A stretch of 38,582 nucleotides of DNA from an uncultured Gammaproteobacteria bacterium (lineage in GTDB: Bacteria > Pseudomonadota > Gammaproteobacteria > JABDGN01), in assembly GCA_964456955.1 (NCBI GenBank), contig CAYWDC010000001.1:1-38582 (forward strand). The letters are read 5' to 3'. A program made the translations under genes and the position numbers. The notes below the pieces were generated by a model. The model was not told the DNA's origin, ran no database searches, and worked only from the letters and a program-made list of their open reading frames with translations. Below, one piece after another: positions 1 to 11,862 of this stretch (positions are counted from its first letter, which is position 1; every line of letters begins with the position of its first letter).

Positions 1-258
1 AAGGGTCGGGAGAATAACAGCTGTATACGGATGTTTTGCCGCGTAAGGAATGGTGATAGTGGTTGGAGCTTGACGGAATCATTAAAAGTCAAACAACTTA
101 ATTTTCTATTCCTAAAAATATTCAAGGTGTGTATTTAAATTTCAAGTACCATGCATAAGCATTAACAAGAAGTGAAAAACTGTATCAAATTGTGAGAGTC
201 CATTCTTTAGTCAGAAAGACGTAAAGAACTAGGCAGCTAAATGAAAATTGTCTAATAG

Positions 259-381
259 CTAGATTCCATGAGAGATCCCAGAAGCATTTTTGAGTTTATG
301 CATCAACCATATTTGAGGGAGCATCACTAAAGAGGCTTCTGCGCCTGCAATCCAAGCAAGAATATCAGGCCATATTGTCAC
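259..381 (-). pseudogene. Possible relic of a PQ-loop / SemiSWEET-type membrane protein (first TM helix plus PQ motif only)
   Basis: Hand translation of the minus strand gives VTIWPDILAWIAGAEASLVMLPQIWLMHKLKNASGISHGI-stop. A hydrophobic helix is followed by PQ, then 11 residues, then GIS. This is the same spacing I recall for bacterial SemiSWEETs (E. coli ...APQSIKTIRTRNTEGIS...). There is no ATG (only GTG at 381), the frame closes after 40 codons, and no convincing continuation exists in the other frames. Confidence 0.25.
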
Positions 382-2842: not shown

Positions 2843-3853
2843 TTAGGTAACTTTTGTAAAGTGCAACCATCGCGCTAGATCTTTAGCGAAGTAAGTAATT
2901 ATAAAATCAGTACCAGCTCGTTTGAGAGCAAGCATATTTTCAATGACCACACTTTTTTCATCAAGCCAACGCCTTTCTGCAGCTGCCTTAATCATCGCGT
3001 ATACACCGCTGACATCATAAGCAGCAAGTGGCACTTGCGGAAACTTTTGTTTAACACGATGGATGATATCTAAATTGGTGATTGCAGGTTTTATCATAAT
3101 GATATCTGCACCTTCGGCAATATCAAGCTCAGTTTCACGCAAGGCTTCATTGGTATTGGCCACATCCATCTGATAGCTTTGTCGATCGCCGCGTTGTGGC
3201 CCACTATCGGCAGCGTCACGGAATGGACTATAGTAGGATGACGCATATTTGACGCTGTAACTTAAAATGGGTACGTGTTGATAATTTGCTTGGTCCAAGG
3301 CACGACGAATTACTTGCACCATTCCATCGATCATGCCGCTTGGCGCAAGCATATCGACACCCGCATTAGCATGTGCAAGCGCTTGTTTTTTCAGGATTTC
3401 TAAGGTTTTATCATTGTTGACATCTAACCTGCTCACGGTTTCGTCAAGGATGCCGCAGTGTCCATGATCAGTAAACTCACAACAACAAATATCGCTGATT
3501 ATCAGTAAATCGGGTGCCATGCTTTTTATTTGGCGAATCGCCTGCTGCACAATACCGTTATCACTGTAAGCATCTGAACCGTAGCCATCTTTTTTTTGTG
3601 GAATGCCAAACAATAACACCGCAGGGATATTTAAGGTCTGGATGTTATTAATTTCAACAGACAAATTTTCTAGGGTAATTTGATACTGTCCTGGCATGCT
3701 AGCGATAGGAGTGTTTGCGCCTCGAACATGCTTGATAAACAGTGGGTAAACGAAATCATTGATGCTAAGGTGCGTTTCACGTACCAAGTCACGCACTTTT
3801 GGGTGATAGCGTAAGCGGCGTAGTCGTGTTGTTGGAAAAGAGGTGTTAGTCAT
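2843..3853 (-). CDS. hemB: Porphobilinogen synthase (delta-aminolevulinate dehydratase), Zn-type
   Basis: Motifs are the N-terminal TTRLRRLR, the cysteine-rich metal site DICCCEFTDHGHCG, and the active-site Lys region IMIKPA. I place the start at ATG 3853 (MTNTSFPTTRLRRLR), which overlaps the tolC stop in ATGACTAA. The track ORF extends 11 codons further, to 3886. Confidence 0.9.
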   Translation of the reverse strand: MTNTSFPTTRLRRLRYHPKVRDLVRETHLSINDFVYPLFIKHVRGANTPIASMPGQYQITLENLSVEINNIQTLNIPAVLLFGIPQKKDGYGSDAYSDNGIVQQAIRQIKSMAPDLLIISDICCCEFTDHGHCGILDETVSRLDVNNDKTLEILKKQALAHANAGVDMLAPSGMIDGMVQVIRRALDQANYQHVPILSYSVKYASSYYSPFRDAADSGPQRGDRQSYQMDVANTNEALRETELDIAEGADIIMIKPAITNLDIIHRVKQKFPQVPLAAYDVSGVYAMIKAAAERRWLDEKSVVIENMLALKRAGTDFIITYFAKDLARWLHFTKVT

Positions 3854-5327
3854 CAGGTGGTTTTTTAGTGATTTCTTTTGCCGCATCTTGTTCTAGCACC
3901 ATAGACTCTTCATTGCTGTTATCTTGTTGTAATAATTTATTTTGCACAAGGAGGTTTTGCTGTTTTTTTAACTCGGATGTTGCTTCATGCTTAGTATTAT
4001 GCGCCTCGCTGTTTGGCACATTGGTGAGATAAAGGTTGACTTGCCGTAAGTCATTGACGCCAAGGATGCCGACAGCTTTTTTCAGTTTAAAGGTGTTAAT
4101 GATATGATCAAACAGATCACTGGTATAGTTTTGTTGACTCTGGTAAAGTTTTGCTTGTGCGCTCAATACATCAGCGATGGTTTTTGTACCAACTTGATAA
4201 CTTGCTTCATTACTTGCTAAGGATGCCTTTGCCGAGTTGATTGCTAGTTTGTCGGCTTTAATTTTGCTGATGTCTGCAGACAACTCCAAGTAGGCATTAC
4301 GAGCCTCAGCGAGGATTTTCCGATGGGTCTGATCTGTGGCAGCGACGGCGATTTGGTAATTGTATTCAGCCGTCTTGGTTTCAGCGCTGTACAAGCCACC
4401 TTGATATAGTGGTACATTTAATGTGACGCCGATTGTTGAATTATAGTACTCTGATTTTCTAAAATAATCATGAGTGTAATTATAATTGCCATTTAAGCGG
4501 AGGGTGGCCATTTTTCGTGCAGATGTTGCTTTAATATTCTCTTTTGTTGCTAGTGCATGATAGCGAGCTGCCATCAGGCTTAAATTATGTTGTTCTGCTG
4601 CTTTAGCCCATTCATCGATGCTTGCCGGGGCTGGTTTTACTAACGGAAAACTCTCTTTGAGCTTGGCGAGGGAACGATAAAACTGTCCAGTGATTTGCCA
4701 TAGCGCTTCCTTATCACTGGCTAATTTATTTTCCGCAGCAAGGTAAGATGCTTTTGCCAAAGCATAGCTGGAGCGTGCATCGTAAACGGACGTAATGGTA
4801 TCTAAGCCAACCTTATAACGTTGCATCGCTATTTGCAGTGAACTGTACAATTGTCGTACATTAGCCATAGAATAATCGAGTACGGCCAGGTCTTTTAATA
4901 TGGTAAAATAAGCGGTTGCAGTGCGCATGATAAGACTTTCCATTGCAACACCGTAATCGGCAGCTGCCGATTTAACATCGAGCTTTATCTCTTTATAATT
5001 TTTCAACTTACTCAAATCGAATAAACTTTGATTCAATGACAAGGTGGCGTCAAACTGGTTAGTCGGACTGAGATAACGCCTACTTCTATCCACGGTCTTA
5101 TTCTGACTACTTTCTAGGTTCAAGTTGGGTAAAAAAGCGGCGCGTGCTTGTGGCAGTTTCGAACGTGCGCTCATATAAGTTGATTTTGCCCGCTTATAGG
5201 TGGGATCACTGGCTTGTGCTTGTCGGTAAACTTGCAGCAGATTAGTGGCCGGGGCTTTGGTAATGTTCCCCACTAATATCATGATGCAAAATAAAAGTGT
5301 TAGTTTTTTTACTGTCTTTATTGTCAT
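3846..5327 (-). CDS. tolC: TolC-family outer membrane efflux channel
   Basis: 493 aa. There is an N-terminal signal peptide (MTIKTVKKLTLLFCIMILVGNITKAPA). The TolC-like repeat begins LLQVYRQAQASDPTYKRAK...LPNLNL, and a second repeat half and a hydrophilic C-terminal tail follow. Confidence 0.85.
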   Translation of the reverse strand: MTIKTVKKLTLLFCIMILVGNITKAPATNLLQVYRQAQASDPTYKRAKSTYMSARSKLPQARAAFLPNLNLESSQNKTVDRSRRYLSPTNQFDATLSLNQSLFDLSKLKNYKEIKLDVKSAAADYGVAMESLIMRTATAYFTILKDLAVLDYSMANVRQLYSSLQIAMQRYKVGLDTITSVYDARSSYALAKASYLAAENKLASDKEALWQITGQFYRSLAKLKESFPLVKPAPASIDEWAKAAEQHNLSLMAARYHALATKENIKATSARKMATLRLNGNYNYTHDYFRKSEYYNSTIGVTLNVPLYQGGLYSAETKTAEYNYQIAVAATDQTHRKILAEARNAYLELSADISKIKADKLAINSAKASLASNEASYQVGTKTIADVLSAQAKLYQSQQNYTSDLFDHIINTFKLKKAVGILGVNDLRQVNLYLTNVPNSEAHNTKHEATSELKKQQNLLVQNKLLQQDNSNEESMVLEQDAAKEITKKPPDD

Positions 5328-5782
5328 CAGCAGAGCTTACGTATCTCGTACACTCAAGTATTGGATATAAAATGTTTTTTTACTCAACTTACTGCCTGCG
5401 CCGGAACCTGTGATGAATCATCACCTGCTTTTTTGCTGTTTCACCTATACTTGTAGTGAATAAATGCTCATGTCAATTACGTATGCTGATATTCCTGGCA
5501 GCATGCGCAAGATACATGCAAGATGAGATTTTGCCGGTCAACTGACCAGGGTTTCCGGGCAATATTGTCGTTCATCTACATCTTTTGATTTTTATTGTCT
5601 GTTAAAGTATACACGAATATAATGCAAATAAAATAAAAAATCATGGTGGTTACCCGCGGCGAAATCCAACTCTGAATGTAGGGTTAGTGTTGCGTCGTAG
5701 GATAAGTATCAATAAGTCCTACAACAAAGGAGCTGCGCTTAACATAGGTGTACAATACGCGCCTGTCCAGTATAATGATATT

Positions 5783-6529
5783 ATGAAAATAAATGTACTA
5801 CAAATTACTGACTGCCATCTATTTGCTGACTCGACCCAGCAGCTAAGAGGTGTCGATACCGAGCAAAGTTTTTTACGGGTATTAGCAGCAATTTGTGCGA
5901 CCACAAGAACCCCAGACCTTATTTTATTAACTGGGGATTTGGCAGATCTGGGCGAAGCCGATGCCTATCGTCGTTTGCTGACACATTGTCAGCGATTGAC
6001 TTGTCCGGTTTTTGCAATCCCGGGTAATCATGACCAAGTGGCTGTGATGAAGCAAATATTCAAAGATAGCAAAATTTCCATGAATCCATCCTTTGTCCGA
6101 GGTGGCTGGCATGTTATTTTGTTGAATTCGGTAGTGCTAGGCGATGACGAAGGCACGCTTGCCCCGAGTGAATTACATTTTCTGCAAACAGCATTGACAC
6201 ATTATGCTACATTGCCAACATTGATTGCCTTGCATCACCACGTGAAACCCGTTCATGGTTATATGGATACGATGATGTTAACCAATGCTGATCTGTTTCA
6301 TGAGATTATCACAGCGCATAAGAGTGTACGTGTGGTGCTGTCTGGCCATGTGCATCAAGCTTTTGAGGAATCATGCAATCATGTAAGGTATCTCGCCAGT
6401 CCATCCACTTGTTTTCAAATTAAAGTCAATATTCCCGAATTTACCAAAGATGAAACATCGATGCCTGGCTATCGCTGGTTAGCATTATATGACGATGGTA
6501 AAATCGAAACCGAAGTGGTTAGGGTTTAA
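5783..6529 (+). CDS. cpdA: 3',5'-cyclic-nucleotide phosphodiesterase CpdA (metallophosphoesterase)
   Basis: Metallophosphoesterase motifs are present: ITDCHL, LTGDLAD, GNHD and SGHVHQ. I use ATG 5783 (MKINVLQITDCHLF). The track ORF starts at GTG 5687 and adds a basic, non-conserved 32-aa extension. The position after tolC matches the E. coli tolC / nudF-yqiB-cpdA-yqiA-parE neighbourhood. Confidence 0.85.
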   Translation: MKINVLQITDCHLFADSTQQLRGVDTEQSFLRVLAAICATTRTPDLILLTGDLADLGEADAYRRLLTHCQRLTCPVFAIPGNHDQVAVMKQIFKDSKISMNPSFVRGGWHVILLNSVVLGDDEGTLAPSELHFLQTALTHYATLPTLIALHHHVKPVHGYMDTMMLTNADLFHEIITAHKSVRVVLSGHVHQAFEESCNHVRYLASPSTCFQIKVNIPEFTKDETSMPGYRWLALYDDGKIETEVVRV

Positions 6530-6586
6530 TCGTTAATGCACCTGCGTGATATGGCCATGAAGTGGTAGAGTCAAATAGGAAGACTC

Positions 6587-6663
6587 ATGGCAAAAAATTA
6601 TAGTGCTAAGATATTGTAGTATTAAACGGTCTTGAACTGGTACAATGTCGTACTGGGTATGTG
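6587..6663 (+). pseudogene. parE: parE (topoisomerase IV subunit B) 5' stub, frameshifted and truncated
   Basis: Hand translation gives ATG 6587 MAKNYSAK, then a stop after two more codons. A shift of +1 at about 6610 gives DIVVLNGLELVQCRTGYV. Joined, MAKNYSAK/DIVVLNGLELVQCRTGYV matches the ParE/GyrB N-terminus (E. coli ParE MTQTYNADAIEVLTGLEPVRRRPGMY) at 11 of 23 aligned positions. No similarity continues past about 6663. The stub lies 58 nt after cpdA, where parE normally sits. Confidence 0.6.
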
Positions 6664-6700
6664 CTTCGACGCATCCAAATGTTCTTATGGCTACCCAGTT

Positions 6701-6718
6701 ATTTGTGAAGTCACAAAT
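6701..6718. promoter_or_regulatory. Perfect 18-bp palindrome ATTTGTGA-AG-TCACAAAT, a candidate operator upstream of the MFS gene
   Basis: Read directly from the sequence. The 8-bp arms are perfect reverse complements and lie 46 nt upstream of ATG 6764. An extended -10-like TGgTACAAT lies at 6638-6646. Confidence 0.35.
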
Positions 6719-6763
6719 CAGTTCATAATATTTTTATCTTGTAAAATCTAACAAGTCTATTTT

Positions 6764-8002
6764 ATGTCAATTAAAATGATAATCATTAGTGTCGCTGTTT
6801 GGCTTGTTGCCACAGTGTTTTATTCGTTGGATTACTTCCAGCATGCCTCCCCCAGTGTATTGTTAATGCCGATTGCCGTGTCGATGCATATGGATGTGAA
6901 TACTGTTGTCGGCGTCATGGCGATTTATTGGCCTGTGTATGCGATATCGCAGCTCCCGGTAGGTTGGTTGCTTGATCGATATGGTTACCAATGGGTCTTG
7001 CCGATTTGCTGCACGATTATGAGTGCGGCTATCGTTATATTTTCGCACATTCCGGTGCTACCTATCATGTGGTTAGCACGAATATTTATCGCCATCGGTT
7101 CTGCCGCCGCTTTTTTAGGGGTATTGAAAGTTGCTGCGATGATGCTGCCCAACTCTATTTTCCCTGTGGCGGTGGGGTTAACCAATACCATTGGCACGTT
7201 GAGTGCCATATTTGGCCAAGTGTTGCTAAGCTATGGTATTACACATTTGGGTTGGCAAAACGCATTGTCGTTGATTGGTTATTTTGGCTTAATATATGGT
7301 GTTGTGCTGTATCTTTGCTTGCGTATCAAGACGCAGACCAAGCATAGTAATATTTCGCGCAAATTATCTTTACAACATTTGGGTGTATTGCAGTCAAAAG
7401 AACTCTGGTTTATTGCCCTTTATGCGGGTCTTATGGTTGGCACGGTTGTTAATGCGTTTTCTGAGCTTTTTGATGTTGTTTTTTTACAATATACTTACCA
7501 CTTAACCGCTATAAAAGCCGCGTCAATCAGTTCCACTATATTTATTGGCATTGCAGTTGGCGGACCCAGTCATGGTGTGATTAGTGCGTTGATAGGTGGC
7601 AAAAAGCGATCGATGATCATTGCAAATCTGTTAACGATTGTCATTTTCGGTATCATTGTATTATTGCCTGCTGCACTGAGTGTGCTTTCTTTATATGTGC
7701 TCTATTTTTCTTTAGGCTTTTTTATTTCCAGTATGTTACTGGCTTTTTCAGTGGTCAATGATATTTTTCCCAATGAAATGCAAGGAACGGTGTTGGCAAT
7801 CGTGAACATGGTTATTGGTTTGTGTGCCGCTTTTTTTCAGCGCTTCATTGGTCATGTCAGTGCCTGCATCAATGGCGGTGACATTAAAATGATAAATAAT
7901 CCCCATGTTTTCACTTTATCGTTTATTTTCTTGTTATGTCCATTGATGTTAAGCTTTGTTTTATTATTATTTACGCGTACGCGTTATAAGGTCATGATTT
8001 AA
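6764..8002 (+). CDS. MFS transporter (12-TM type), substrate unknown
   Basis: 412 aa and highly hydrophobic, with about 12 predicted helices. The loop 2-3 region LLDRYGYQWV resembles the MFS signature. The specific subfamily was not recognised. Confidence 0.7.
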   Translation: MSIKMIIISVAVWLVATVFYSLDYFQHASPSVLLMPIAVSMHMDVNTVVGVMAIYWPVYAISQLPVGWLLDRYGYQWVLPICCTIMSAAIVIFSHIPVLPIMWLARIFIAIGSAAAFLGVLKVAAMMLPNSIFPVAVGLTNTIGTLSAIFGQVLLSYGITHLGWQNALSLIGYFGLIYGVVLYLCLRIKTQTKHSNISRKLSLQHLGVLQSKELWFIALYAGLMVGTVVNAFSELFDVVFLQYTYHLTAIKAASISSTIFIGIAVGGPSHGVISALIGGKKRSMIIANLLTIVIFGIIVLLPAALSVLSLYVLYFSLGFFISSMLLAFSVVNDIFPNEMQGTVLAIVNMVIGLCAAFFQRFIGHVSACINGGDIKMINNPHVFTLSFIFLLCPLMLSFVLLLFTRTRYKVMI

Positions 8003-8120
8003 ATACGCCAGATTAATTAAATGATCGGTTGGTTAACATTTTTAACTAAGATTGCAGATTTAAGTTTGGCTAAGTCTCGTTGTTAAATTGACTAGTATGA
8101 ATATATAAGACAAGGTTACT

Positions 8121-8470
8121 ATGACAGAATCGCAGCCGTTGCACCTGTTCACTGAGAAGGCGTATCTTAACTATTCCATGTATGTGTGATCCTCGATCGC
8201 GCCTTACCTCACGTTGGTGATGGCTTAAAACCGGTCCAGCGTCGCACTATCTATGCCATGTCGGAATTAGGTTTAAATGCGTCGGCAAAATATAAAAAAT
8301 CGGCACGCACCATCGGTGATGTGTTGGGTAAATTTCATCCGCATGGTGATAGTGCTTGTTATGAAGCCATGGTACTGATGGCACAAGATTTTTCCTATCG
8401 TTATCCTTTAATCGATGGACAAGGCAATTGGGGTTCACCCGATGACTCAAAATCATTGTCAACGGAATAG
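8121..8470 (+). pseudogene. parC: parC (topoisomerase IV subunit A) 5' fragment with a +2 frameshift, truncated
   Basis: ATG 8121 gives [22 protein letters not shown] then TGA. The frame starting at 8186 continues [89 protein letters not shown]. This is nearly identical to the E. coli ParC N-terminus, including the QRDR. An extra TG in GTGTG (8184-8188) breaks the frame. The fragment ends ...KSLSTE-stop, where ParC and GyrA carry KSxAAMRYTE with the catalytic Tyr. Confidence 0.85.
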
Positions 8471-8487
8471 ATAGGCAGTGGTAGTAG

Positions 8488-8516
8488 TTGACATTAGATG
8501 CCAGTAATCCTATTTT
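8488..8516 (+). promoter_or_regulatory. Candidate sigma70 promoter for ppc (TTGACA, 17 nt, TATTTT)
   Basis: TTGACA lies at 8488-8493, followed by a 17-nt spacer and TATTTT at 8511-8516, about 70 nt upstream of the ppc ATG. This is a sequence match only. Confidence 0.3.
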
Positions 8517-8586
8517 ACTATATTAACTGTTTTAGGGATTAACTAAATATTATAGTGGCAATTGAATAGAAAGGGAAAACCTTATC

Positions 8587-11205
8587 ATGGCAGCAATAAA
8601 ACGCACAATAAGCGATGACATCCATATCTTAGGCGATTTATTAGGACAGATACTGAGGCTGTATGAGGGAGAATCGACTTATGCCTTAGTAGAAAAAATT
8701 CGTATTTTATCAAAATCTTCGCGAGAATCTGAGAAAGATTTACAGACGTTGCATCGTCTCATTCATGATGTGCCAGACGACCTGACACCCCAGTTAGCAA
8801 GGGCGTTTGGCCAGTTTCTACATTTAGCTAATATTACTGAATCTTATGATAATCAACGGCAGTTACGCCAACAACCAGAACCTCTGATGGCTATGTTGCC
8901 TAAGCTGTTAAAAAAGAAACTCTCTGCTAAAAAGATTGCTAACGCCTTACGTGAGCAACAAATCGAATTAGTATTGACTGCACATCCTACAGAGGTCAAA
9001 CGTCGTACTTTGATTCAAAAGTATAGTTATATTGCTGGTTTATTAGAGCAACGTGATCGTATAGAAATGACGAAAGATGAGATTGCACATTGGCAAGATA
9101 AACTGAAAACAACAGTGAATGCTATTTGGTTAACCGATGAAATTCGTCGCGTTCGTCCCACCCCAGTTGAAGAAGCTAAGTGGGGATTTGCCATCATCGA
9201 GGATACGCTTTGGCATGCTATACCACAATATTTTCGGCAACTTGATGCTGCTATGCAAAAGTACTTAGGAGAAAATTTGCCGTTAGATTGCACCCCTATT
9301 CGAATAGGGTCTTGGATGGGTGGTGATCGTGATGGTAACCCTCACGTTACGGCGGCAGTGACTCAGGAAGTATTGCTACTCGCGCAATGGGTGGCTATGG
9401 ACCTTTATACACGAGAGGTTAATCACATGATACAGCATTTGTCGTTGCATGCATGTAACGAATCATTGCGCCAAAGTGTGGGAGAAACCTCTCAACCTTA
9501 TCGAGCGTGTCTGCGTATTTTACGCGATCGTTTAAAAGCAACAGGTGCTTGGTTACAATCCCAATTGGCTGGCCATACAATTGAGCCTAAGATGTCGTTG
9601 ATATTATGTCGTGAAGATTTATTGCAGCCTTTGATGCTTTGCTATCAGTCATTGTTAGATTGTAATGCAAGTGCTATTGCCAATGCTGACCTGTTAGATT
9701 TAATTCGTCGCGTACATGTATTTGGTATCTCGTTGATGCGTTTAGATATCCGCCAAGCAGCTGATTATCATACGGAAGCTATCGCTACCATTACAAATTA
9801 TTTTGGCTTAGGTAACTATGCAAACTGGTCAGAACAAGAGAGATGTTTATTTCTGCAACAAGAACTAGGCAACAAGCGATCTTTACCGTTAGCTGAGTTA
9901 ACCGTTAGTGAAAACGTTCAGGAGGTATTTGACACTTGCCTATGTATTGCAGCACAAAATCCTGACATCATGGGTGCTTATGTAATTTCTATGGCCAGTG
10001 CAGCGTCGGATGTTTTAGCCGTACATTTGCTGCAAAAAGTGGCGGGTGTGAAACAGCCAATGCGTGTGGTTCCGCTCTTTGAGACACTTGATGATCTAAA
10101 TCATGCTGCCGGTGTGATGCAAGCGTTATATAATATGCCGATTTATAAGAACATGCTAAATGGCCAACAGGAAGTTATGATTGGCTATTCAGACTCAGGT
10201 AAAGATGCCGGCAAGTTAGCCGCTAGTTGGGCACAATATGAAGCACAAGAACAGCTACTTCATGTATCGCAACAAGCAGACATACAATTGACTATATTTC
10301 ATGGTCGTGGTGGTTCAGTTGGTAGAGGTGGCGGGCCAGTGCATGCTACCTTACTGTCTCAACCGCCAGGTTCTGTACAAGGTCGCATGCGCGTAACCGA
10401 ACAGGGTGAGGTGATCCAACAGAAATATGGGTTGCTTACTTGGGCACAGCACAATCTCATGTTGTATAGTGTTGCGATGTTAGAGGCAACACTCATACCA
10501 CCGCCAGAGCCTAAACCAGAATGGCGTGAAATAATGGCTCAAATATCAGAAATTTCATTACATGTGTATCGAAAAATAGTGAGGGAGAATCAAGATTTTG
10601 TCACGTACTTTCGACAGGTAACGCCAGAACAGGAATTAGGTCGATTGTTAATTGGTAGTCGACCCAATAGACGTAAAGCAAAGGGTGGTATTGAAAACTT
10701 GCGTGCCATTCCTTGGGTATTTGCCTGGACACAAACACGCTTGATGTTACCAACCTGGTTGGGTATCGGCGAAGCATTAGACGCGTTATGGTCTAAGCAA
10801 AAAGATATGTTGTGCGATATGCTCAATGACTGGCCATTTTTCTCTGTGTTAATAGATATGCTTGACATGACGCTAACTAAGACTGACATTGATATTGCTG
10901 CTTATTACGATGCTTGTTTAGCAAGCCCGGAGACCAAAACATTTGGTGCCGATCTGCGTCGCCGGTTAAAACAGACCGAGGAGATAGTACGAGTCATTGC
11001 TGCCAATCAGACTTTTCAGGAACCGCAGCAGAACTTATATAAGTCTCTTAAGGTGCGTAACACTTATGCGGATCCGTTGAATTTCTTACAGGCGGAAGTT
11101 ATGAGGCGATTACGTCAAGGAAGGGTACATAATAAGGCAGCTTTGGAGGACGCATTGGTTTTGTGTGTCGCTGGGATTGCGGCAGCAATGAAGAATACGG
11201 GTTGA
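8587..11205 (+). CDS. ppc: Phosphoenolpyruvate carboxylase
   Basis: 872 aa and intact. Motifs are VLTAHPTEVKRRT, GYSDSGKDAG, FHGRGGSVGRGGGP and the C-terminal ...AAMKNTG, the canonical Ppc terminus. Confidence 0.95.
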   Translation: MAAIKRTISDDIHILGDLLGQILRLYEGESTYALVEKIRILSKSSRESEKDLQTLHRLIHDVPDDLTPQLARAFGQFLHLANITESYDNQRQLRQQPEPLMAMLPKLLKKKLSAKKIANALREQQIELVLTAHPTEVKRRTLIQKYSYIAGLLEQRDRIEMTKDEIAHWQDKLKTTVNAIWLTDEIRRVRPTPVEEAKWGFAIIEDTLWHAIPQYFRQLDAAMQKYLGENLPLDCTPIRIGSWMGGDRDGNPHVTAAVTQEVLLLAQWVAMDLYTREVNHMIQHLSLHACNESLRQSVGETSQPYRACLRILRDRLKATGAWLQSQLAGHTIEPKMSLILCREDLLQPLMLCYQSLLDCNASAIANADLLDLIRRVHVFGISLMRLDIRQAADYHTEAIATITNYFGLGNYANWSEQERCLFLQQELGNKRSLPLAELTVSENVQEVFDTCLCIAAQNPDIMGAYVISMASAASDVLAVHLLQKVAGVKQPMRVVPLFETLDDLNHAAGVMQALYNMPIYKNMLNGQQEVMIGYSDSGKDAGKLAASWAQYEAQEQLLHVSQQADIQLTIFHGRGGSVGRGGGPVHATLLSQPPGSVQGRMRVTEQGEVIQQKYGLLTWAQHNLMLYSVAMLEATLIPPPEPKPEWREIMAQISEISLHVYRKIVRENQDFVTYFRQVTPEQELGRLLIGSRPNRRKAKGGIENLRAIPWVFAWTQTRLMLPTWLGIGEALDALWSKQKDMLCDMLNDWPFFSVLIDMLDMTLTKTDIDIAAYYDACLASPETKTFGADLRRRLKQTEEIVRVIAANQTFQEPQQNLYKSLKVRNTYADPLNFLQAEVMRRLRQGRVHNKAALEDALVLCVAGIAAAMKNTG

Positions 11206-11349: not shown

Positions 11350-11862
11350 GTCCGCAGTAATCTTAAATGGGGGCTGTCGATTATTGTTTACTCTAAAATC
11401 AGTTTTGCAAGGCACCCTGTATTGACCTCCATTACCCATTTAACTCAGAAAGTAAAAAGCATGACTTTACAAAATTTCAGGTTAACTCGTTTGGATAGCT
11501 AAATAAACCGACAAAGCCTAAATGTGATGAATCTAAATCTAGTGAATAATTACTCTAATCGTGTGGTGGTCACCAACACGGGATATTTGTTGCTGTTCGC
11601 AGTCAATGAACTGCCGCAATTGGCCAAGGGTAAAGGGAATAAGATGATCAATATTCCGATGGCAAAATACAAGGACAAAGAAGAATACATTGTCGATGTT
11701 GCGGTGTTGCACAGTAAGCAAGCATGAGTATTTTATTCTTGGAAACGGCAAATCACCTTAAAAGCAAAAGATCTGGCTCGTTATCTTGGGAAGCGTGGAC
11801 AACGTGGCAGCAAATTACCGCGCGGTTACCAGCGCGTAAGCCGCATAGCGGTCGTTGTGTAA
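11350..11862 (+). pseudogene. parC: parC 3' relic in a single frame with two in-frame stops
   Basis: The frame of ORF 11524..11727 reads NRVVVTNTGYLLLFAVNELPQLAKGKGNKMINIP. E. coli ParC has ITQAGRMLMFPVSDLPQLSKGKGNKIINIP. After TGA at 11725-11727 the same frame continues ITLKAKDLARYLGKRGQRGSKLPRGYQRVSRIAVVV-stop at 11860-11862, matching the ParC tail KLRPEELQKVTGERGRRGTLMRGLQRIDRVEI. Upstream, the same frame carries TAA at 11500-11502 and weaker ParC-like sequence back to the triple stop at 11341-11349. Confidence 0.8.

Follow-up and report, generated by a model that had tools for sequence, protein, structure and literature searches.

A truncated parE remnant behind cpdA and the probable loss of topoisomerase IV in an uncultured gammaproteobacterium

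Introduction

Topoisomerase IV is essential in E. coli. In the window studied here (the whole stretch of DNA analysed, 38,582 nucleotides from an uncultured gammaproteobacterium), the 77 bases at positions 6587–6663 look like the first codons of parE, which encodes one subunit of this enzyme. Their reading is broken by a frameshift, and an intact gene for an MFS transporter begins shortly downstream. Are these bases really a relic of parE? If so, what removed the rest of the gene, and does the organism still possess a working copy elsewhere?

To answer these questions, we compared the locus with its relatives and with the remainder of the assembly to which it belongs, a metagenome-assembled genome (MAG) of 970,434 bases in 193 contigs that is estimated to be 82% complete. 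We conclude with high confidence that the segment is a non-functional 5′ remnant of parE (the start codon and about the first 26 codons). A deletion of about 1.85–1.9 kb, probably a single event, took away the rest, and topoisomerase IV has probably been lost.

Results

Sequence of the stub and its closest intact counterpart

A large protein search revealed one 16.4-kb ENA contig (L076, hereafter the sister) that carries both a 70% match to cpdA and an 84% match to the MFS gene. Its gene order is hemB-pckA-tolC-cpdA-parE-MFS-parC. The parE gene of the sister is intact and encodes 628 aa with all four domains and the N-terminus MAKNYSAGDIEVLRGLEPVQRRPGMY; its parC encodes at least 621 aa and runs off the contig.

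In the window, the stub opens with an ATG at 6587–6589. Frame 1 yields MAKNYSAKIL, a 10-codon ORF ended by TAG at 6617–6619, and the frame from 6610 yields DIVVLNGLELVQCRTGYV (6610–6663) and stays open until a stop near 6709. The original prediction, in which MAKNYSAK is followed by a continuation in a shifted frame, thus agrees with both the sequence and its frames, and the predicted survival of about 25 codons is close to our count of about 26 out of about 628. The nature of the lesion had to be revised. What was described as a '+1 shift' is, in the alignment to the sister, a 1-nt deletion inside codon 8 (GCC GGA GAT in the sister, GCT A-A GAT in the window). Since AAG of codon 8 shares its G with GAT of codon 9, a single base is missing, which differs from the usual '+1 shift'.

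The first seven residues of the stub are identical to those of the sister ParE, and identity extends to 18 of the 25 comparable codons/residues. At the DNA level, window positions 6480–6685 align with positions 7848–8063 of the sister at 69% identity. Beyond this region, which runs from the 3′ end of cpdA across the spacer and the ATG to about codon 26 of parE, the similarity ends. The AGGAAG motif in front of the stub, a candidate for the former ribosome-binding site, lines up with GGAAAA ahead of the sister's parE ATG. Coordinates of all features are collected in Table 1.

Table 1. Features of the parE–parC region of the window
Feature	Position	Strand	Remarks
cpdA (3′,5′-cAMP phosphodiesterase), intact	5783..6529	+	NF008359, E 1e-62; 70% aa identity to sister cpdA
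AGGAAG, candidate former parE ribosome-binding site	6577..6582	+	4 nt before ATG; read from sequence
parE relic, codons 1–8	6587..6609	+	MAKNYSA as in sister ParE; 1-nt deletion in codon 8
parE relic, codons 9–26 (DIVVLNGLELVQCRTGYV)	6610..6663	+	shifted frame; E>V, P>L, R>C, P>T; 3-nt deletion near end
Deletion scar and remaining parE–MFS spacer	6664..6763	+	not alignable to parE
MFS transporter, intact	6764..8002	+	PF07690; 84% identity to sister MFS
parC 5′ stub (ParC residues ~8–122)	8115..8461	+	TIGR01062, E 1.5e-64; 2-nt insertion at 8187–8188; truncated
ppc (PEP carboxylase), intact	8587..11205	+	PF00311; sits where the middle of parC is expected
parC 3′ stub (ParC residues ~650–748)	11563..11859	+	in-frame TGA

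The stub derives from parE

The original prediction had itself proposed a profile search of the segment, a comparison with shuffled sequences and a search for an intact parE elsewhere in the genome as checks. As the query for a genome-wide scan, we used the ParE N-terminus of G006, a genome of the same family (MAKDYSAQDIEVLSGLEPVQRRPGMY). An 18-mer and an 8-mer from this ParE were slid along all 970,434 bases of the assembly in each of the six frames. The 18-mer had its single best match at C1:6610 (score 43, runner-up 29) and the 8-mer at C1:6587 (score 31, runner-up 25). These two top matches are independent of each other and lie 23 bases apart. Dinucleotide-preserving shuffles of 6530–6763 scored far lower: none of 2000 reached the observed scores (z 7.2–8.3).

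For the profile search, a stitched peptide in a 26-residue and a 40-residue version was compared with 18,950 NCBIfam models. The matches listed (4 for the shorter version, 3 for the longer) all belonged to ParE or GyrB models, and all fell at their N-termini. As anticipated, the best one was a ParE model, TIGR01055 (parE_Gneg), matched over positions 2–25 with an E-value of 0.003–0.005. It scored 15–16 bits, compared with 11–12 bits for the GyrB models. Together with the MAKNYSA start and the location of gyrB on another contig, these scores point to ParE rather than its paralogue GyrB.

The 40-aa stitched peptide had no match in Pfam, because the surviving piece ends before the HATPase_c domain. 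Given this blank and an E-value of only about 0.003 for the stitched peptide, the strength of the case lies in close relatives and synteny. When the full-length ParE proteins of relatives were compared with positions 5200–8700 by tblastn, residues 9–24 alone were matched, so no 3′ relic of parE survives there. None of the ATPase, transducer, Toprim and C-terminal domains is present in the stub, and PF00204 had no match in the whole assembly.

The stub occupies the orthologous position of parE

The segment had been predicted to lie in the slot that parE takes after cpdA, also in E. coli. The first part of this claim stands, as the position is orthologous to that of an intact parE in the sister and in three further relatives. 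In L077, L078 (both with a cpdA of 60%) and G006 (locus L017), an intact parE follows cpdA within 3–17 nt. The order in G006 is hemB-tolC-x-nudF-cpdA-parE-(3 genes)-parC, and its parE begins 3 nt past cpdA. The second part needs qualification. E. coli K-12 has the order tolC / nudF-yqiB-cpdA-yqiA-parE, with parC 7.5 kb off, and the presence of yqiA between cpdA and parE means that the two lineages share a common operon and not a directly adjacent position.

The intact MFS gene was found where it had been predicted, 100 nt past the stub. The Logan contig L083 contains the 3′ end of parE, an MFS gene (64%) and the 5′ end of parC, in that order. As the sister and this contig both show parE-MFS-parC, the MFS gene already lay downstream of parE in the ancestor of this clade. 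The same order rules out the idea that the MFS gene replaced parE or is an insert.

Further upstream, the spacer between tolC and cpdA (window 5328–5782) is 455 nt long, compared with 190 nt in the sister. Two genes, nudF and one for a PCMT-like methyltransferase, occupy it in G006, and the window showed no recognisable relic of them. Scanning genome contigs with cpdA gave distant matches alone, most of them actinobacterial.

The remnant has decayed after a probable deletion

On the 23 safely aligned codons, 7 substitutions fall on the branch leading to the window. Codon positions 1, 2 and 3 received 2, 3 and 2 of them, and most are GC>AT. Judged from these alignments, this spread is the pattern of unconstrained DNA. 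The replacements E>V, P>L, R>C and P>T affect residues at which all working orthologues agree.

The right-hand breakpoint is not placeable since the spacers between parE and MFS are too diverged; positions 6696–6755 weakly resemble the spacer of L083 in an alignment that is unreliable. Neither a mobile element nor a repeat-mediated deletion is indicated, as no direct or inverted repeats were found flanking the locus. The composition profile showed no clear foreign island.

We propose the following course of events. The ancestor of the clade carried tolC / cpdA-parE-MFS-parC. A deletion, probably a single one, then took out everything between about codon 27 of parE and a point beyond its stop, in the spacer before MFS. 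Afterwards, the remaining piece acquired the 1-nt frameshift in codon 8, a 3-nt deletion and the replacements at invariant residues. Today the stub would be neutral DNA, presumably read through from cpdA to MFS. With parC destroyed as well, topoisomerase IV would have been lost, and the unlinking of daughter chromosomes would fall to DNA gyrase, possibly with help from FtsK/Xer, a solution already suggested for other bacteria without topoisomerase IV.

Instead of being neutral, the stub could have been exapted and now control the MFS gene, acting as its promoter, as a 5′ leader or through a 10-codon upstream ORF (MAKNYSAKIL with the old ribosome-binding site). We consider this unlikely. It would fit the retention of the ATG and the AGGAAG site, and no terminator was found between cpdA and MFS. 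Additionally, window-specific substitutions turn CCAGTGCAGCG of the sister into CTGGTACAATG, which creates TGgTACAAT, an extended -10-like sequence at 6638–6646. However, these substitutions are mostly GC>AT, as plain mutational decay predicts, and a promoter scan of the + strand gave 3 sites versus 2.2 expected in shuffles, which is not above background. The segment has no Rfam match, the RNA folding of 6530–6770 is not unusual (z -1.39), and the MFS gene of the sister has a separate 155-nt spacer of its own upstream. AT-biased decay accounts equally well for the -10-like sequence and the retained 10-codon ORF, and we saw no sign that the stub serves a function.

Topoisomerases in the assembly and in related genomes

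In the search for an intact parE elsewhere, no other parE or parC turned up in the 970-kb, 82%-complete assembly. By contrast with the topoisomerase IV genes, gyrA (contig C107) is open over 852 aa and contains the GyrA box QRRGGKG. The gyrB gene is represented by its C-terminal 414 aa at the start of contig C76, where the N-terminal part is cut off. The assembly further contains one type IA topoisomerase, with no topoisomerase III found, and an ftsK gene that is split across two contig ends. No type II topoisomerase other than gyrase was found, and gyrase would then be the enzyme that unlinks daughter chromosomes.

The six other genomes of the family all carry parE: five with one match above the model cut-off, and G003 with one copy split across contigs. 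A parC gene was seen in at least four family genomes (G001, G002, G003, G004 and G005 are those named), and the parC of G006 runs off its contig at 566 aa. Outside the family, in other families of the same class, we noted two genomes with gyrA and gyrB and with neither parC nor parE: G023 (2.1 Mb, 100% complete) and G030 (0.4 Mb, a single contig). Judging by their gene content, both seem to have lost topoisomerase IV independently within the class, so the loss proposed here has precedents nearby.

These data also bear on the idea that topoisomerase IV was retained, with intact parE and parC hidden in the unassembled 18% or so of the genome and the relics representing a displaced or duplicated locus. 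In its favour, the assembly is just 82% complete, and a contig end interrupts even gyrB. Nevertheless, we regard this scenario as very improbable. The relics occupy the ancestral syntenic locus, and the two subunit genes are ruined side by side. The related genomes carry a single parE, and gyrase-only genomes do occur in the same class.

The ruins of the two genes differ in how far they have diverged. The parE stub shows 5 replacements in 23 codons, and the 5′ stub of parC about 6 in 112. Relative to the sister, the parC 5′ stub retains 96% identity at codon positions 1 and 2 and 75% at position 3, a pattern of purifying selection. It is conceivable, though very doubtful, that parE was destroyed well before the constraint on parC ended; the sample is tiny and the changes cluster near the breakpoint. 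If this were true, ParC would have been maintained for a while in the absence of ParE, implying that it worked independently of ParE or paired with GyrB.

The junction is reproduced in other assemblies

Four other public assemblies contain the identical 77-base stub in the same context. Identity to the window is 99.98% over 13.2 kb in a JGI contig and a 38-kb ENA scaffold, and 100% over 2.57 kb in two short ENA contigs. Although the source is a MAG, this agreement across assemblies makes an assembly or binning artefact scarcely credible, and similarity by chance is excluded by the unique best matches in the genome-wide scan together with the shuffle control. The contig ends of L081 and L082 were considered as signs of strain variants and dropped, because the start of L081 is a sequencing-adapter string, as low coverage would explain.

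Discussion

Pseudogene remnants of the deletion type are well known, and the stub is a new example of them in a genome that is being reduced. It shares several traits with the remnants known from host-restricted or genome-reducing bacteria: a short stub at the ancestral locus that cannot be annotated, AT-biased decay, and further decayed genes in the same genome. It stands out only by the nature of the lost gene, which E. coli cannot do without, and by the intact copy that a sister lineage retains.

The similarity to a working gammaproteobacterial parE (TIGR01055, in the context tolC / nudF-cpdA-(yqiA)-parE) extends to the start codon, the ribosome-binding site, the position after cpdA and the N-terminal motif Y-x-A-x-D-I-x-V-L-x-G-L-E-x-V. 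In the window, however, only about 26 of some 628 codons are left, and these are frameshifted and mutated.

Other genes of this genome are decayed or absent as well. A PQ-loop (SemiSWEET-like) gene at window positions 125–381 (- strand) is a pseudogene when compared with the intact 86-aa protein of the sister: its frame shifts after residue ~40 and a Ser has become a stop (TLTI*YSF versus TLAISYSF in the sister). A homologue of rpiB (LacAB_rpiB; G000:C31:1839-2278) lies in two pieces in different frames relative to the sister protein and is probably frameshifted. The PQ-loop pseudogene, the split rpiB and the missing pckA (see below) fit the picture of genome reduction.

Bacteria that naturally lack topoisomerase IV are known, among them Helicobacter pylori, Campylobacter and Mycobacterium tuberculosis, and gyrase, Xer/FtsK and topoisomerase III have been discussed as substitute decatenases (PMC3325230). 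The lineage of the window resembles them in that gyrase is the sole type II topoisomerase found in its 82%-complete assembly, with gyrA, gyrB and ftsK all present. It differs from them in that the wreck of both parC and parE can still be read, which suggests that topoisomerase IV was lost recently. To our knowledge, no remains of parC or parE have been described in those three groups.

Seen in isolation, this is an ordinary remnant of a pseudogene. What makes the stub valuable is that it provides dated and readable evidence of a recent loss of topoisomerase IV in a gammaproteobacterium. Since the sister has the same gene order and keeps both subunits, the two lineages form a natural comparison pair. 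Such a pair makes it possible to ask how gyrase, perhaps with FtsK/Xer, takes over unlinking in small and probably slow-growing genomes. It is also worth stressing that short relics missed by ORF callers can be recovered by synteny, which helps to tell gene loss in MAGs from incompleteness.

The neighbouring genes have histories of their own. The best named relatives of the MFS protein belong to the Francisellaceae (Cysteiniphilum 61%, Facilibium 59%, Francisella ~50%), some of them labelled as MFSD1-like lysosomal dipeptide transporters. Same-family genomes contain MFS paralogues of 31–34% only, and a comparison of the protein with metagenome contigs returned paralogues of 26–28% only. This distribution suggests that the gene was transferred long ago into the ancestor of the clade formed by the window and the sister. 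In the spacer in front of it, 46 nt before the MFS start, lies a palindrome (TTTGTGA-AG-TCACAAA, 6701–6718).

The ppc gene that sits within the remains of parC is 32–35% identical to the ppc of same-family genomes (G001, G004). Its closest relative, at 74%, was found on contig L084 in another context (tsaB-ppc-alkB), where the flanking genes are 32–64% identical, and the next-best named matches come from Pontiella/Verrucomicrobia and Pseudomonas (51–55%). The gene may be a native one that has moved, or it may be foreign. The sister carries pckA (PEP carboxykinase, 519 aa) between hemB and tolC, at positions 4022–5581. In the window, hemB and tolC abut each other (3846–3886), and no pckA was found anywhere in the assembly. 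The absence of pckA and the presence of ppc inside parC may together represent a swap of PEP/oxaloacetate enzymes.
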